Source: Octopus sinensis
Lineage: Eukaryota
Assembly: GCF_006345805.1 (NCBI RefSeq)
Contig: NC_042999.1
Span: 806,001 to 870,000 of the forward strand
Reading direction: 5' to 3'
Length of the DNA: 64,000 nucleotides
In this document: piece after piece, positions 11,824-60,587 of the stretch
Numbering within the stretch: position 1 is the stretch's first letter
How the letters are laid out: the number at the start of each line of letters is the position of its first letter
The notes under the pieces: model-generated
Database searches by the model: none
Told to the model about the DNA's origin: nothing
The model's input: the letters and a program-made list of their open reading frames with translations, nothing else
Program-made: the position numbers and the translations under genes

Positions 11824-11880
11824 TGTATATTGTTGTTAAATGCTCGAAATACGAGACTAGAAAAACAGCCAACTACTTTA
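11824..11880 (+). ncRNA. Decayed permuted hammerhead-like motif (CUGANGA deleted)
   Basis: uguaUA/uuguuguu...gcuc GAAA uacg...aacagccaa CU. Stems III and I pair as in the 1864, 13457 and 62065 copies; the element ends gacgtcctgtgccca like 13318. Confidence 0.4.
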
Positions 11881-12018
11881 TGCTGTTTGTTATATTTTTC
11901 ATTTGTGTCTTTCGTTGTTCGAAAGAATAGTTCATGTTCCATGTACTCGTGCCTCGTACTTTTATGTTGTACATGTTTCGTGACGTCCTGTGCCCACATA
12001 TATATGTATATGTATATG

Positions 12019-13204: not shown

Positions 13205-13456
13205 ATATATATAAATAATAAATAAATATATTAAATATACATAATATATATGCATATATACACACATATATGTACATGCCAACATATATATGTATATATA
13301 TATATATATATGCTTATTTGGGTACAGGACGTCAAAAGAAGTCAACAAATAACAAGCGAGAACATAAAAACAAAAAGTATGGAAAACGAACGTTTTTGTC
13401 GAACAACTAAAGAAACAAATAGAGAAACGAGACAGGCAACATAAAGAACATTCCCT

Positions 13457-13514
13457 TCATCAGTTGTCCTTTGTTTTATCTACTCCGTGTTTCGAAGCTA
13501 AGGACAAGACGTGA
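13457..13514 (-). ncRNA. Candidate permuted hammerhead ribozyme with canonical core nucleotides
   Basis: Minus strand: ucacGUC/uuguccuu agcuuc GAAA cacgg...aaggacaa CUGAUGA aggg. Stem I is a perfect 8 bp; stem III is restored by reverting two CpG-type G>A changes. Lies in repeat 13318-13650. Confidence 0.55.
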
Positions 13515-13860
13515 CTTCGTTAAAACAGATTAAATAATATTTGGGATTTTTTGTGGAGGCTTAAAGTAGTAACAAAAACAGGACAGTAAGAACAAAGCAG
13601 AAAAAACAAACGGTGAGGACTGTTAAACCATAAGGATGTGAAGTGGTGAACGCTATATATATATATATATATATATATACCTGAATTAGAAAAACATAAT
13701 GCTTATCTGATTATAGAAAAAGCAATTACATTTGAGCCATTATTGACTGTTGGAATATTTAAATGATTTTCTATATTTATGGGAACATTTCAATGAAAGA
13801 TTTCTAGTACAATTTAATAATTCTTACAATGAAGTAATTATCTAATACATTTTTCACTAG

Positions 13861-33493: not shown

Positions 33494-35360
33494 GCACAAC
33501 AGCTTCCACAAGGACATGTGTTACATCAAAAGTTCTTGGTTGGGGATGCAAATCCTCTCATTCACGTACGACATAATGCGGCAGCAGCATAGAGTTGAAG
33601 CGTCCGTCTCTTTCTTCTCTCAATGTAGAATGAGGAAAATTGGATGTTGAGGTAATGTAAATAAATACATACATATATAGAGGTGAAGATGGAGGGGCGA
33701 GAGTTCGGGACGAGGGATTATAAAAAATGTATAAAATGTGTAAGTATAGAATAATATAAAAATGTAGAGGATAAAGGGTTGTAAGAGATGTAAAGGGGTA
33801 TAAAGAAATATAAAGTAAAAATAGAAATAGAAATAAAAGTAAAAAACCTGATAAAAACATGATAAAAGTGTAAAAGAATGTAAAGATAAGGGATGTATAG
33901 AGGTTATGGACCAAGCATGGTGGTCAGGAGATTGATCAATTTAGTTGTAGAATTGTCAGTACATCAACAGTTTCGTCTGGGGACTTAATGCGTTGTAAAT
34001 CAGAGCTGATGAGCATTTAATCTGGTTCCTTGAATTAAATGGACTTCTAGTACATACATATCATCATGGATATATACACCCACATACACGCGTACATATA
34101 CGCCTCCAAGCCTATAGCATACACACCACTCGCGTGTAAACACGTACATAAACACACACGCACCCACACGCACGCGCGTACACACACATACATACAACAG
34201 AATATCCGCATATATACACAGACATTACGCGCGTACACGCTCACATGTATATACGCGCGCCCATCACTACATACACACACGTATATGCCCACGCCTCTAG
34301 GTCCAGGTATAAGATATTAAAGGATGTGTATAAGAACGTATGTAAAGAATCCCGTACTCATGTCATACGCGCACGCACACACGGCTGTGTGTCCGTATGT
34401 GCGTGCACATATACACTCATATACACACACAGAGACACACGCGCACATGGGTATAGCTATAAGATATCGAAGTATGCATGTACATATATGCGCGTGCATA
34501 TGTATGTATGCGTATACACACGTACGCGGACGCTCGTATATTCAAAAGGTGGATCCATAGGTAAGTAAATAAACATATATAGAGGTGTAAAGCGATAAGT
34601 TAGGGGTAAGAATGAGGGTAAGGGTAAAGATTAGAAATAAAAAATACAGTATAAAATAAGAAATACAATGTAATAGTTAGAAATGAAGTATAAGAATTAT
34701 AAAAATTATAAGAGTTAAGGTAAGGGATGAAAATGAAAATGAGAATAAATGGAAGTAGAATAAAAGTAAAAATAAAATTAAAAATAAAAATAAAAATAAA
34801 TGGAAGTAGGATAAAAGTAAAAATAAAAGTAAAAATAAAAATAAAATAAAATAAGATAAAAATAAGATAAAAATATAATTTTGTAAAGTTTAACATGAGA
34901 TGAAGGTGGTTGAAATTTAGAGGTGTGTGTTAAACGTAGGGGCGGGCGGGGGGAACTGAAAATTGGAAGGGTGGGAAGTGGAGTTTGGCGGTGTGCGTTC
35001 AACATCTGAGTTAGAAATGTGAAAGGGTATAGATATAGGGGATTAAAGAGACTACATAGGGAGGATATGGGTGTAGGAGAAGAAATATTTAGGGAAAAGA
35101 AGTCATATATGGGAGACAAAATTTGTATATATAGGGGGAAAATGCAGGGAACCCTATATGCACGTACACACACCCGCACACACACACACACACGCACATG
35201 TACATATATATGTATATGTACACATACGTACACGTATGTGCACATATATACGCACACACACACACATACACAATACACGCACATATAGGAAGCGGGATGT
35301 GCTGGAGCCGACAGGTTGCACCGGGTGGGAGGAAATTGCATGGGGGAGTTGGTATAAGAC

Positions 35361-37172
35361 CTAAGCATTGTAGTATTTGAAAGTATTAATAAGTTTATGT
35401 ATACAGGATGGTTTGAACTCTGACCTTTTGTTAATAAGATTGTGTTTGTCTTTGAATTTCAAGATGTTAAGGAGTTCTACACAGCATAGTTGGCATCCTG
35501 CTCTATTATTTAAATAAGGTGCAGCTGATCCGATGATGGACCATCTGAGTTTGAAGCCTATGCATTTGTCTTTTAATTCCCAAATCTTTTAGAGAGGGAG
35601 GTGCTGTTAGCCTTATGTCTGTGTCTCAGCGAGGACCGGTGGTTGTAGTATCTGGATTTCCAGAGGTTGAGCAACCAATATAGGTGAGTGTGTTAAACTG
35701 AGTACTCACCTCACATGAGTATATTACGTTTTTCGCCCTACATGCGCCCTGCAGCGGGCACTCTGATGCACATCTGCAGTTGCATTGCATTGCATTGTTC
35801 GGTCGTGTGCTGCTAATCCCAGGCGGAGGTGTTGCAATACGAGTGGGGGCGTTGGTATCCTCCTGGTTGTTGATGGGTGTAGTATTTCCTCTGTTGTGTT
35901 GGCGGGTGTTATTACTAACTGTTTGGGTCGTATGGCTGCCAGTCTGGTTATATTGTCTACTGTCTAGATGAGGGGGGTTCTGTTGGTCGCTATGGTTTGC
36001 TCTTGATCCAGCTGTTCTAATATTAATATAGTTATGTTTAGCTATGAGGCAGCTCATGTTGGGCAGGGTAGAGTAGGAAATCCTAATAGTTTTGTTGGAG
36101 AAGATACTTCTATACTTGTGGGTGGGTGGGAAGTTGTTGGAAATTATAGAGAATATTCTCTTACATAACTTACCCCTAACTGCTAAGTTGAAAGGTATGT
36201 TGAACCATATATATTTGCGTAATCTACTATTATCCCTTCTATTTCTCCTAATAGGATCTATATTGCTCTCGTCGGGAGGGTTACTATTGTGTGCTGTTCT
36301 ATTAGTTCGCCTATTTCCTATACGTTGTTTGGAGTTTAAATTAGAATTATCGCTAGTGTGAGTTGAGTGCTGAGTTCGATTATAATTGGGAGTCTTATGG
36401 CCGACGGACGCTCCCGGGTGGTCTACATATGATATTCTCTGGTTATACCGGCACTGTAGAGAGCCTGGTTGTAGTGTTGTGCATGATTATTGAAAATTTC
36501 TCTATTAGAGGATAGTTTTGTCAGTCTGTCTGAGATGGCTTGGACCGTGGTGCTAATTATACAGGGTGGATGGTTGGAAGAGGTATGGATGTATTTGGTA
36601 GTTTCTTCTGGTTTCCTATACGGGTAGTGAAGGTGCTTATTCAAATCTAACGTAACATCTAAGAAGTTTACTATTTTAGTATTGGTCATAAATTCTAGTT
36701 TAAGATTGAAGGATTTGAAAAAAAGCCTGATCTTTTTCCTAATTCTTTCTAGTTTACTCCTATTGTTGGTGGGGTATATGAAGAGAGCGTCGTCTCTGTA
36801 TAGACCCCCCTGAAGATCCGGTACCTCGGAGAAAAGCTTCTTGAGCAGGTAGGCCCCGACCAAGTCAGTCACCTGAGCTGAATCGCTCGAGCCCATAGCC
36901 ACATCGAAATTGTCGTGGGTATCGGATCTGGTCCAGAGTCTACCGTCGAATTCTATTATGGTTTTTCTAGCTAATAGAATTATGTCAATTTTTTCTCTGT
37001 CTATGAGTGAAAGGTTGCGGGCAAAAATAAGGGATTTGTTAAGTAAGATGGGGGATATACTGGCGTAGTAGCTAGCTATGTCGAATTGGATGAATGAGTA
37101 GTCGGGCCTATTGGTGATAGTGTTAAACCATTCTAGCACATCGTTGGTGTTAATCCATAGTTGGAGTGGGAT
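35361..37172 (-). pseudogene. PLE polyprotein: reverse transcriptase, thumb, Cys knuckle and GIY-YIG endonuclease; N-truncated, two frameshifts (~36447, ~35664)
   Basis: LWINTNDVLEWF, FIQFDIASYY, MGSSDSAQVTDLVG, GLYRDD, VNFLDVTLDL, IWFNIPFN, ISYSTLPNM, CNCRCASECPLQGAC, VIY...YIG, WKSRYYNH, CQLCCVE, LINKRSEF...CIH; stop at 35361-35363. Confidence 0.92.
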
Positions 37173-38551
37173 TTTCAACCACCTTCATCTCATGTTAAAC
37201 TTTACAAAATTATATTTTTATCTTATTTTATTTTATTTTTATTTTTACTTTTATTTTTACTTTTATCCTACTTCCATTTATTTTTATTTTTATTTTTAAT
37301 TTTATTTTTACTTTTATTCTACTTCCATTTATTCTCATTTTCATTTTCATCCCTTACCTTAACTCTTATACATTGTATTTCTTATTTTATACTGTATTTT
37401 TTATTTCTAATCTTTACCCTTACCCTCATTCTTACCCCTAACTTATCGCTTTACACCTCTATATATGTTTATTTACTTACCTATGGATCCACCTTTTGAA
37501 TATACGAGCGTCCGCGTACGTGTGTATACGCATACATACATATGCACGCGCATATATGTACATGCATACTTCGATATCTTATAGCTATACCCATGTGCGC
37601 GTGTGTCTCTGTGTGTGTATATGAGTGTATAAGTGTGCACGCACATACGGACACACAGCCGTGTGTGCGTGCGCGTATTGACATGAGTACGGGATTCTTT
37701 ACATACGTTCTTATACACATCCTTTAATATCTTATACCTGGACCTAGAGGCGTGGGCATATACGTGTGTGTATGTAGTGATGGGCGCGCGTATATACATG
37801 TGAGCGTGTACGCGCGTAATGTCCGTGTATATATGCGGATATTCTGTTGTATGTATGTGTGTGTACGCGCGTGCGTGTGGGTGCGTGTGTGTTTATGTAC
37901 GTGTTTACACGCGAGTGCGTGTGTATGCTATAGGCTTGGAGGCGTATATGTACGCGTGTATGTGGGTGTATATATCCATGATGATATGTATGTACTAGAA
38001 GTCCATTTAATTCAAGGAACCAGATTAAATGCTCATCAGCTCTGATTTACAACGCATTAAGTCCCCAGACGAAACTGTTGATGTACTGACAATTCTACAA
38101 CTAAATTTGATCAATCTCCTGACCACCATGCTTGGTCCATAACCTCTATACATCCCTTATCTTTACATTCTTTTACACTTTTATCATGTTTTTATCAGGT
38201 TTTTTTACTTTTATTTCTATTTCTATTTTTACTTTATATTTCTTTATACCCCCTTTACATCTCCTTACAACCCTTTATCCTCTACATTTTTATATTATTC
38301 TATACTTACACATTTTATACATTTTTTATCCCTCGTCCCGAACTCTCGCCCCTCCATCTTCACCTCTATATATGTATGTATTTATTTACATTACCTCAAC
38401 ATCCAATTTTCCTCATTCTACATTGAGAGAAGAAAGAGATGGACGCTTCAACTCTATGCTGCTGCCGCATTATGTCGTACGTGAATGAGAGGATTTGCAT
38501 CCCCAACCAAGAATTTTGATGTAACACATGTCCTTGTGGAAGCTGTTGTGC

Positions 38552-53992: not shown

Positions 53993-54254
53993 TAGGCATT
54001 TGACAAATTTGGAAGCTGGGCTTCTTGGGTCTCAAGCGGAAGCATTACTTTGCCTGCAGGAACATTAGGGCCGACCGTCAGGGCGAATTCGTTACTCAGA
54101 GATGGCTCAATGTACCCCGGGTGGATGCCGCCACGAGTTCAAATACAAGTGTATCCCGATTTAGTATTGGTTGGCAGATATCACTACGGACCAGTAAACA
54201 GTTTGTTCACTAAAGTTATAAAAACTCCCGCTATGTTCATTTATCCGACGGTGC

Positions 54255-54302
54255 CTCTGACTGATGAGAAGCAACGATATCGAAACACCGGATGTTCCAG
54301 AG
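54255..54302 (+). ncRNA. Type I hammerhead motif, canonical core
   Basis: cucuga CUGAUGA ga...uc GAAA ca-ccgga-ug UU ccagag; weak stem II and a mismatch at the first stem I pair. Confidence 0.65.
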
Positions 54303-55468
54303 TCTCTTCTGCTGAAGAACCGAGTGTGTTATGAATATATATTCGTCGTAAAGAAGCTGTCCTCCTGTGTCGAAACACGACAGCATTTAGCGTGTTCACT
54401 TTGGAATCAGTCGAAATGTATTAAGAATAACTATGCAAGTTGTTTCATTTATCGCTGTTCACCATGCATATCACAATTTATAATCACTTATCTCATTTTC
54501 CAGCAAGTATGGTGGACAATTCTGGAAATGTTTCTGTCTTGCTTTAAATTAATCAATAATGCATAGATTTCATCACGCATGCCGAAATATTGATTAAACA
54601 ATTACTAAGTTAATTATACAAGATTCTACACTGAGATATTAGAGAACGTCACTTTGCTCAATACTACAGAGCACTCAGCCGGAATTTGAGAGGAACAGGC
54701 TTCAGTTGTCTGTAACAGAAAATCTTCCCACTTTTTCTGTTTTTTAAGGGTATTTACCTGATCTCATAAACTGTTTTCACGGCTATTCCGTGTTCGAGAT
54801 TTCTTTAAAATAACGGGATATTAATTTTTGGTTTCTTCTACTTATATACATTCAGAATCATTCTTGTTTACTTTTTAACATTCGCCATATTAAATCTTTT
54901 CAGATTAACGGAACTCTTGTTTCCTAACTGGATAGCATTTTGTAAACCTTCTTACGTTATTAGAAATATCTGTATGCGAAAACAAAGAGTAAAGAAGCAT
55001 AGTGAGATAAGAAATAGTTTACAGAAATTTACTTTATTGAATTATTCTAAAGAAGATTTGATTCGTATCATTGCTGAATTAGTTTCAGATAACTCCGTGA
55101 AGAAGATGCTGGCTGTTACAACTATAAAGAAGCTGTATTTAACTGGAGGAACATTGCTTCATTCGTTCGTTCATTTGTAGTAAATTTTTCTCATGCTAGC
55201 TTGGGTTAGCCGTATGTAATATTGATGCATTGTGTTAGAGTGAATGCCGTGCCTGACGCTATCCCTTCCCTGTCTATCAAGTAAGGGATCTCTGATTCTA
55301 CACGTTTTAGAGAACATAAATCTAGAAGCAATTTGTTGATAGGCGAAATGACAACATTATTACGGCTAGAATTTGCCAATTAAAAGGTAATTACACTGGC
55401 GGTGCACCAGCATGGTCACAGCATTAGGGCTGGCTGAAACATATAAAAGAAAAAAGAATAGAATAATA

Positions 55469-58522: not shown

Positions 58523-58733
58523 GTGAAATAGAAAGATGAATAATCTTGTTGTAGATTAATCAAAAGTTAACCGATACCTTAGTAGCAAAAATCACAGCAG
58601 TAAACAGCACGGTTGGAGTACAACCATCTGGCGTTGCAACCGTGCGTTGGTGCGGATAATTGAAATTAAAACATTATTGGTGAATTGAAGAAATGGAGCT
58701 GAACGCAGATTGAACAGAAATCGTTTTATTTCA

Positions 58734-58812
58734 TTCTACACGTGTTTCGAAAGCACAAATTACCAAAATCCGATTGAATAATGGGACCATATTGTGTCTT
58801 TCTCTTCAGGAA
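58734..58812 (-). ncRNA. Type I hammerhead, left-arm copy
   Basis: Reverse complement of 59251-59329. Confidence 0.8.
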
Positions 58813-59250
58813 GAAAAAAGGAAATCCGTTAGAGAAACAAAACAGAACAGAGGCGGAGCAAAAACCAAATCGAACTATGCTCCTAAGAGCCCATGGCGAA
58901 ACTGTTTATCAGTGTATGCTGAGAACGGTGGCTGAAGAATTCTACAGGTCAGGCATCGGTCAATCATGTGGGTGAGGGTGTATAGATGTTCTTAGTGACC
59001 GAGAATAAAGTTCTGACTATTTAATACATCCAATATTCCTTAAATAGTCAGAACTTTATTCTCGGTCACTAAGAACATCTATACACCCTCACCCACATGA
59101 TTGACCGATGCCTGACCTGTAGATTCTTCAGCCACCGGTTCTCAGCATACACTGATAAACAGTTTCGCCATGGCTCTTAGGAGCATAGTTCGATTTGGTT
59201 TTTGCTCGCCTCTGTTCTGTTTTTGTTTCTCTAACGGATTTCCTTTTTTC

Positions 59251-59329
59251 TTCCTGAAGAGAAAGACACAATATGGTCCCATTATTCAATCGGATTTGGT
59301 AATTTGTGCCTTTCGAAACACGTGTAGAA
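59251..59329 (+). ncRNA. Type I hammerhead ribozyme, canonical core
   Basis: uuc CUGAAGA gaaagacacaa...uugugccuuuc GAAA cacgug UA gaa; predicted cut 59326/59327. Confidence 0.85.
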
Positions 59330-60587
59330 TGAAATAAAACGATTTCTGTTCAATCTGCGTTCAGCTCCATTTCTTCAATTCACCAATAATGTTATATATA
59401 TATATATATACATGTATAAATATATACATATATATTTGTATTTTTCTTTTTGTCTATGTTTTTACTCTGCAGAACTGATTTAACTTTCATAAAGCTCATA
59501 TTTTAAAAAGATTTCGTTCTTTCTTTTTTATTGAACATGATTTGGTTTTTATTTCTAGTATATTTTTCTTGTATATCCGTAGTTTATGAAATATGTCCTA
59601 ACAACAGATAAAAAAAACATACAATATTGGAACATTTGAAAAAAAAAATTGTTTAGTGATCATTGATAGAAATTCTAGAGTTTCTAGATTTAATGCTTCA
59701 ATAGTTTCTAAATTACCAGAGCAGACACTGAAGCTCTCTGTCTGTCTCTGTCTCTCTCTCCATCTCTCACATATACATCTATACACAGAGTATAAATATG
59801 CCCACATATATAACACATTTAAACTCACAAACACATAAACACGACTTGTATGGCATGAAGCATTCGAAAATAACTGAAATTTAACAAATGAAATGAAATC
59901 AATACCAACAAATATGTTGGCGATTGTCTGGTTAGATGGATGTATATATCAATGGTAGTGGAACTGAACAGAATCAGTATAAGGTTTGAAAGGGTTAATA
60001 AAAACTATAAGGATTGATAAGGTAGGGTCACAGAGTTTCTGTGGCAGACGAGGCTGAAACGATGACGAAAGGCAGCTTTCATATCGGCAGCCCTGATCAA
60101 ATTTGTTTTAAAGTTCCGCTTGAACGGACAGTGAGGATGGAGATGGTAGTGCTTCTCTTCAGCGAAATCTTGTAAAGATGGTTGATGGTAACGAAAATGG
60201 TTAGGGCGAATTGCCCTACTCTAAGCAGGTGCATGTTGACTGGAGAACAACATAGGGCGGACTCGTACCTTTGGAAATCTGAGTGAGCATGGATCTGGGA
60301 TTCCTTGGCTGGTTCTTGTTCGATTTGCACCTGTATCTGGTAGAATACAGCTTTCCTGTTTCCACTTACTTGTATAATAGGTATATATATATATTCTTTT
60401 ATGCCATTTCACTGTCTTTTCCATTTGTTTCACCCCATTTTTAATACAAACTGTCCACGTAATGACACAAATTGTAAACTATCCTCGTAGTGACCCCCTC
60501 AGTGTCAAAACAATGTACATGATAACACTTCCAATCAGTTAAGATCAGAAGCCATGAGAACCACTGCCTTGTATTGCATCAGGGCAT

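Follow-up and report, generated by a model that had tools for sequence, protein, structure and literature searches.

With good confidence, we interpret a stretch on the minus strand of a 64,000-nt window of Octopus sinensis DNA (the whole sequence analyzed; contig NC_042999.1, positions 806,001–870,000) as a decayed, probably inactive copy of a repeat family whose tail holds a likely self-cleaving hammerhead ribozyme, in which A9 is not joined to G10.1. The strand order of this fold was read directly from the copies, its four helices covary, and the window copy has lost the upstream strand of stem II (P2a). At the family level, the feature has the sequence and the pairing of a hammerhead, from which cleavage is predicted.

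Read along the minus strand from 13514 to 13457, the motif presents a GUC triplet with the site at C13508, followed by GAAA and then by CUGAUGA (Table 1). The letters of the permuted motif described in the earlier note (GUC, an 8-bp stem I, GAAA, and CUGAUGA in A-C-B order) were confirmed: residues 13507–13500 form eight Watson–Crick pairs with 13471–13464, and the hammerhead core elements CUGANGA, GAAA, and NUH are all present. The whole feature (NUH, eight Watson–Crick pairs, an intervening GAAA, and CUGANGA) had one match in the window and was matched in 1 of 400 block-shuffled windows, while CUGAUGA by itself was not enriched (16 occurrences in the window versus a shuffle mean of 10.4). 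An Rfam scan at E ≤ 1 yielded no hammerhead among the best 150 of 190 matches; the Rfam hammerhead models have the circular order.

Table 1. Positions, in the window, of the permuted hammerhead elements, the repeat that carries them, and two relatives
Feature	Position	Strand	Support
Truncated (5') copy of an ORF-less Penelope-like repeat, family A1, flanked by (TA)n	13310..13653 (ends approximate)	-	
17-nt deletion site; lost with it is P2a, the upstream strand of stem II, which most copies have as GAAGG	13528..13529	-	30-copy alignment
Ia, 5' strand of the fourth ('I') helix	13521..13528	-	328/352 cells paired, 47 A1 copies
Internal-loop strand with GAA (bulged-G/loop-E-like, predicted)	13515..13520	-	
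First stem III strand, with the GUC triplet; cleavage predicted after C13508; contains one CpG transition	13508..13514	-	
P1a, stem I strand 3' of the site	13500..13507	-	
P2b, stem II strand preceding GAAA; partner lost in the window copy	13494..13498	-	
GAAA core (13493-13490) and second stem III strand; one CpG transition	13485..13493	-	
Internal-loop strand with AGUA	13479..13484	-	AGUAG in 38/47 A1 and 33/34 A2 copies
Ib, 3' strand of the fourth helix; final pair broken in the window copy	13471..13478	-	
P1b, stem I strand preceding the CUGAUGA core	13464..13471	-	
CUGAUGA core; chain exits the ribozyme after A9	13457..13463	-	
Decayed family C copy, four-helix wiring as in A1, kink-turn-type loop	1864..1937	-	
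Decayed family B copy, four-helix wiring as in A1, kink-turn-type loop	62065..62137	-	

The 17-nt gap at 13528/13529 was unique to the window copy among the 30 copies aligned. With it went the GAAGG strand, whose partner CCUUC precedes GAAA, and the closing pair of stem II, G10.1–C11.1, which the upstream strand supplies at the family level. The stem II partner is therefore invisible in the window copy, which would also be a poor choice for an assay because this strand is lost. Stem III of the window copy contains two mismatches, both at CpG sites. Since CpG columns diverge by 21% and other columns by 6% in 47 A1 copies, these mismatches are attributable to decay, as the earlier note had proposed; the commonest letters of the family give six pairs, and stem III was restored in the 30 aligned copies. 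The deletion and the broken stem III together indicate that the window copy is probably dead, a decayed fossil of its family.

In a scan of 2.72 Gb of genome, the A1 family had 3,564 first-look candidates. The full A1 unit is approximately 745 nt long, lacks an ORF, is inserted in (TA)n, and often continues into a partial tandem; the unit or tandem periods of A2 and of a young B subfamily are approximately 795 and 775 nt. The ORF-less unit, partial tandems, 5' truncation, and microsatellite targets are traits of non-autonomous Penelope-like and retrozyme-like elements, and the layout of the A1 unit is the pattern of non-autonomous Penelope-like elements (PLEs). The young B subfamily (loci L176–L205) was 93–95% identical to the query, had 984 candidates, and forms 775-nt partial tandems. 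The starts of A1, A2, and young B units (L002:1197-1240, L210, and L185) showed a short ATG-like piece and a splice-donor-like site (GTAAG or GTATA), which lies directly past the ribozyme tail and recalls the 5' intron of Penelope.

Pairing was maintained across the copies of each family. Among 47 A1 copies with a full core, 298/324 cells were paired in stem I, 226/282 in stem III, and 208/230 in the upstream stem II (fourth helix in Table 1), so that the stem I pairing reported for the window copy proved to be conserved. The commonest letters of each family restored all helices (47 A1, 34 A2, 63 B, 31 C, and 25 D copies), and 82–99% of cells were paired per helix in these five families, with the exception of A1 stem III (80%). 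GAAA and CUGANGA were both intact in 23/47 A1, 29/34 A2, 52/63 B, 15/31 C, and 20/25 D copies, and the core together with every helix was perfect in only one of the 47 A1 copies. Double changes within families were found in A1 stem II (nine copies at one pair), the B fourth helix (26), and B stem I (10 and 4). The stems of B, C, and D are unrelated in sequence; the stem II sequences of B (GGCUGG/UCAGCC), C (GCCCAA/UUGGGC), and D (GACACC/GGUGUC) each open with G10.1–C11.1, and in these three families the strand 3' of P2a pairs with the strand preceding the second arm of stem I. The copies near 1.9 and 62 kb, which the earlier note had compared with this one, were true members of two other families with the same order.

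About a dozen families and subfamilies in the genome have the four covarying helices in common. When one copy was taken from each of 12 (sub)families, 69/72 pairs were formed in P1, 56/60 in P2, 59/60 in P3, and 45/48 in I; swapping strands among families gave means of 44, 35, 36, and 21, and 0 of 20,000 swaps reached the real counts, in a test that is partly circular because intact copies were selected as representatives and the helices were chosen for best fit. These four-helix counts were made by script; the MAFFT alignment has the A4 and A5 rows out of register at the site. At the family level, stems I and III flank the site with U16.1–A15.1, a pair present in 12 of the 12 (sub)families, and G10.1–C11.1 was present in 10. 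Genome-wide, the pattern CGAAA-N17-28-CTGANGA occurred 40,412 times versus 8,342 for the reversed pattern, a five-fold excess.

The downstream aggg, named in the earlier note as a possible stem II partner, had to be given up. In 26 A-type rows, the upstream strand was paired in 89% of cells with 23 double changes, which none of 500 shuffles equaled, and slid partners were paired in 36–60%; the downstream option was paired in 67% of cells and was equaled by 142 of 500 shuffles. Against a null that takes the best of 20 positions, the upstream match had P values of 0.015–0.07 in nine of 12 families and was at chance level in A6, G, and E (P = 0.29, 0.93, and 0.96). These results bear on the possibility that the repeat carries a plain type SGC hammerhead, with the purines after CUGANGA forming stem II and the upstream strand pairing in an inhibitory or alternative way. 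Type SGC has been validated (PMC10085705), and the downstream purines of A-type families can still form three to four mostly wobble pairs, their strand yielding G10.1–C11.1 and two to three wobble pairs with one inserted base. We nevertheless regard such a hammerhead as quite improbable, because the downstream pairing is no better than in shuffles and is absent in B and C (best 2/5), and because the upstream strand covaries, begins with G10.1, and continues directly into the I helix like P2a of types SGC and CSG. The downstream strand is also unpaired, by eye, in the portions of published Naiad ends described below.

With stem II assigned to the upstream strand, the order in the A, B, C, and D families is 5'-P2a-Ia-loop-P3-NUH-P1a-P2b-GAAA-P3-loop-Ib-P1b-CUGANGA-3', and thus the chain is open between A9 and G10.1. 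Hammerhead types I–III have the circular order CUGA, GAAA, and site, whereas the order here is site, GAAA, and CUGA. The order site, GAAA, CUGANGA and the I helix agree with type SGC; the stem II strand that follows CUGANGA directly in that type (Block C intact) was lacking. The fold resembles types SGC and CSG (Eckert et al., 2023, PMC10085705) in its cyclic block order, doubly pseudoknotted core, short link between stems I and II, and 'I' helix joining the far ends of these stems. Unlike in those types, the chain is opened within the indivisible Block C, between A9 and G10.1, P2a-Ia lies at the 5' end, and both I-helix strands meet stem III via an internal loop. None of the six permutations that Eckert et al. 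describe (2023, PMC10085705) has this wiring. Their SGC examples came from metatranscriptomes only and their CSG examples from metagenomes, none from genomes of known organisms, and one weak bacterial candidate was the sole non-circular form from a known organism (PMC10085705); the forms described here, unlike these environmental examples, are high-copy animal retroelements.

Comparison with the type I hammerheads of PLE pseudo-LTRs and non-LTR retrozymes, as described in the accessible parts of PMC4209133 and bioRxiv 10.64898/2026.07.22.740005, showed that both lie close to the 3' end of Penelope-like elements, form ORF-less tandem units several hundred bases long, comprise many families with covarying stems, and possibly act as dimers. 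Those hammerheads have the circular order (CUGA, GAAA, site) and a tiny palindromic stem III; unlike them, the present fold has a full stem III of 5–6 bp split around the site and a fourth helix. In a literature search of open-access papers and of bioRxiv texts without their supplements, neither this wiring nor any non-circular hammerhead from an animal came up, and Eckert et al. (2023) was the only source describing non-circular forms. The earlier note was right about a non-circularly permuted hammerhead core and had rightly asked whether a monomer or a dimer acts; it had missed the fourth helix, the kink-turn or bulged-G loop, and the link to Naiad elements.

The junction of stem III and the fourth helix differed among families. 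In A1–A5, GAA or AAA lies opposite AGUA (GAA/AGUA in A1 itself), a loop that we take to be a bulged-G motif; the 3-nt bulge followed by tandem G.A/A.G was not found in A1. A 3-nt bulge and tandem GA were found at this junction in 48/63 B, 14/31 C, and 15/25 D copies. By sequence, the junction in B, C, and D is the kink-turn consensus, which the accessible part of PMC5061560 gives as a 3-nt bulge and then tandem GA. We found no literature report joining a hammerhead, a kink-turn, and a retrotransposon.

To relate the predicted cut to insertions in the genome, we considered copies whose 5' end joins a TA run ≤30 nt from the anchor. The start lay at or after the predicted site in 25/30 B and 26/29 A loci (binomial probabilities against the share of the interval, 7e-7 and 2e-10); by-eye correction showed that two B calls at -3 were microhomology and that one A call at +8 was really at -9. 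Genomic 5' ends concentrated 0–16 nt past the predicted cut. Minus-strand counts were 722 in the interval -19..+11 versus 95 in -54..-24, the anchors for which were intact in 31/44 and 24/44 copies, respectively. Of 62 loci listed for the next interval and inspected by eye, 44 started at +8..+16, 14 at +17..+38, and four were unrelated. The peak lay at +5..+9, not at 0, and was shaped by TA microhomology. Thirty young tandem arrays of B, selected through their upstream homology, showed no step at the site: their 5' ends were spread between -301 and +300 (eight ends in -70..-1 and four in 0..+20). The young B unit was covered in four presumed-RNA contig sets; such contigs cannot show transcript ends. 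The pile-up of 5' ends suggests cleavage in vivo, and a step at the scissile bond followed by a peak slightly farther along is compatible with reverse transcription up to the end of a cleaved template. In vitro cleavage is established for type SGC carrying an I helix (PMC10085705). Evidence to the contrary comes from the scattered ends in the young arrays, the offset of the peak, and the one PLE tested in vitro, in which, as far as the accessible part of PMC11167929 reports, the hammerhead was dispensable for insertion and no RNA reads started at the site.

The same ends could also be found if the fold were real and cutting had been lost or depended on a protein, with the structure acting as a binding or packaging signal for the RT and the pile-up due to stalling of the RT or to TA microhomology. 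According to the accessible parts of PMC4209133 and PMC11167929, PLE hammerheads cleave slowly and one depended on its protein, and both the 5–9 nt offset of the peak and the lack of a step in the young arrays agree with such a role. We consider it unlikely, if less so than the plain type SGC hammerhead, because the catalytic nucleotides are all kept across unrelated families while the stems differ, because structural stalling should leave starts at the 3' border of the fold (+30..+45), which has fewer of them, and because A families rarely start in the TA-rich sequence that immediately precedes the site. By far the least credible account is that short motifs in an AT-rich repeat fell into this arrangement by chance. 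CUGAUGA alone is indeed at chance level, and nested folding of six stretches gave no significant z-score, in a method that is blind to pseudoknots and that recovered the arm of stem III and the I helix in three intact copies. Chance is contradicted by the covariation across families: a dozen (sub)families, as well as Naiads from four phyla, have the four helices in differing sequence, and the 1 in 400 shuffled windows and the five-fold genome excess add to this.

The likely self-cleaving hammerhead was tied to a coding element through one family. Family D is the 3' end of Naiad elements: a 25-mer of the Naiad_Obim 3' end had 119 exact matches (control, 0), and the D motif lay downstream of a Naiad-type RT on the same strand at 9/30 loci (1.5-kb flanks). 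D-like motifs were likewise found downstream of the RT, on the same strand, at 6/20 more distant RT loci. An N-terminal GIY-YIG-type piece lay upstream of the RT at two loci, so that D has the GIY-YIG and Naiad-type RT upstream that characterize the clade; no ORF was found for A1, B, and C. Pfam named GIY-YIG in one of four fragments and returned nothing for the Naiad RT fragment, and the RT is therefore called Naiad by its motifs and its likeness to the published protein. Naiad ORFs in the genome are broken, the longest frame being 320 aa. An ORF-bearing partner of A, B, and C was found behind none of 40 Neptune-type, 30 Hydra/Penelope-type, and 58 Naiad-type loci, beyond scattered neighbors, and loci retrieved with the A1 start were mostly the ~745-nt ORF-less unit again. 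A1 is thus tied to Naiads only by common wiring and targets. The young B subfamily forms tandems though no intact Naiad ORF was found in the genome, and a Neptune-type family with open 781-aa frames is present.

The repeats resemble the Naiad clade, as far as the accessible part of Craig et al. (2021, PMC8557442) describes it, in (TA)n insertion, 5' truncation, and partial tandems. The same part presents Naiads as elements without a canonical hammerhead and flags only 'core' or 'half-core' cases; unlike that account, we read complete permuted folds in Naiad ends. Published 3' ends were judged by eye in the last 340–420 nt of 52 of the 54 consensus sequences in the available supplement (PMC8557442). 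Split wiring with all four helices was read in nine of the 52 (Bfor, 3_Chem, 2_Movir, Amil, Aacu, Anas, EuTe, Obim, and Ovul), which represent comb jelly, cnidarians, arthropod, and octopus; stem I of the Bfor end has just 2 bp, and a 1-nt bulge replaces the loop in the EuTe end. The Esco end showed three helices with a weak stem II, and six nematode Naiad ends (1-3_Nbra, Hcon, Hpol, and Asuum) showed type CSG with an I helix. We presume which species stand behind the labels Amil, Aacu, and Anas, EuTe, Hcon, and Asuum. No such fold was seen in the last 340–420 nt of the remaining 36. The split wiring and type CSG are one ring opened at different points. In the same supplement, as available, bivalve, amphioxus, and hemichordate Naiads have another conserved 3' motif in common, and the Naiad-1_Movir end is twister-like in appearance (PMC8557442). 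As far as these published ends go, Naiads may exchange ribozyme classes.

In the mechanism we propose, a standard hammerhead core would form with three-stranded contacts and two pseudoknots, and the fourth helix would tie the tops of stems I and II and substitute for the loop I–loop II contact, as in type SGC, in which the I helix is essential (PMC10085705). According to the accessible part of PMC4209133, PLE hammerheads have an extra base between A9 and G10.1, which makes a break at this point plausible. Stem III and the fourth helix would make one arm, and a monomer requires this arm to bend back towards the top of stems I and II. For families B, C, D, and A6, such a bend would be supplied by a kink-turn, making a monomer plausible. 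In A1–A5, a bulged-G-type loop would hold the arm nearly straight, and two copies, as tandem units or as two RNAs, would more easily clasp head to tail. A straight arm, in A1–A5 or EuTe, could not turn back, which makes a dimer clasped head to tail the simpler interpretation for the A1 family. Beyond this, and with less assurance than for the hammerhead itself, we lean towards a wider interpretation: a seventh natural hammerhead wiring, in which the core is open between A9 and G10.1 and the closing arm is either kink-turned or straight, would serve Naiad-type retroelements, from comb jellies to octopus, as their working ribozyme (type CSG in nematodes). It would have cut in vivo and set the 5' ends of many insertions in a population of tens of thousands of copies, and would act in the straight-arm families as an obligate head-to-tail dimer.

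Non-circular hammerheads have so far been unassigned environmental sequences, in a list held closed at six block orders; here is a form outside these orders, in animal genomes at tens of thousands of copies. It would account for Naiads seeming to miss the ribozyme of the canonical Penelope-like clades, and the step that 5' ends form at the predicted cut offers a testable, genome-wide record bearing on the function of PLE ribozymes. A kink-turn in a hammerhead also suggests a means of bridging the far ends of the fold, a question left open by Eckert et al., and is a possible handle for a protein.

Further elements were noted in the window. A decayed hammerhead of the ordinary order (CUGAUGA, GAAAC, site) lies at 54250–54310 on the plus strand; canonical and permuted types thus coexist in the window. 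An inverted repeat pair at 58667–59396, with relatives at loci L146 and L151, has GAAAC and then CUGAAGA at 30 nt, an arrangement that does not fit the four-helix layout. At 11876–11996 on the plus strand, a second, weak remnant matches the 3' portion of family A at 75% over 68 nt. Another stretch of the same contig (C3:23458000-23458300) is 100% identical to the 62-kb region, which points to a recent duplication or an assembly repeat. Additionally, a Hydra/Penelope-type RT remnant (36426–37184, minus strand) lies within long inverted repeats at 33529–38517, a typical inverted PLE insertion, and a related family has, at locus L473, a canonical hammerhead with a long stem II.
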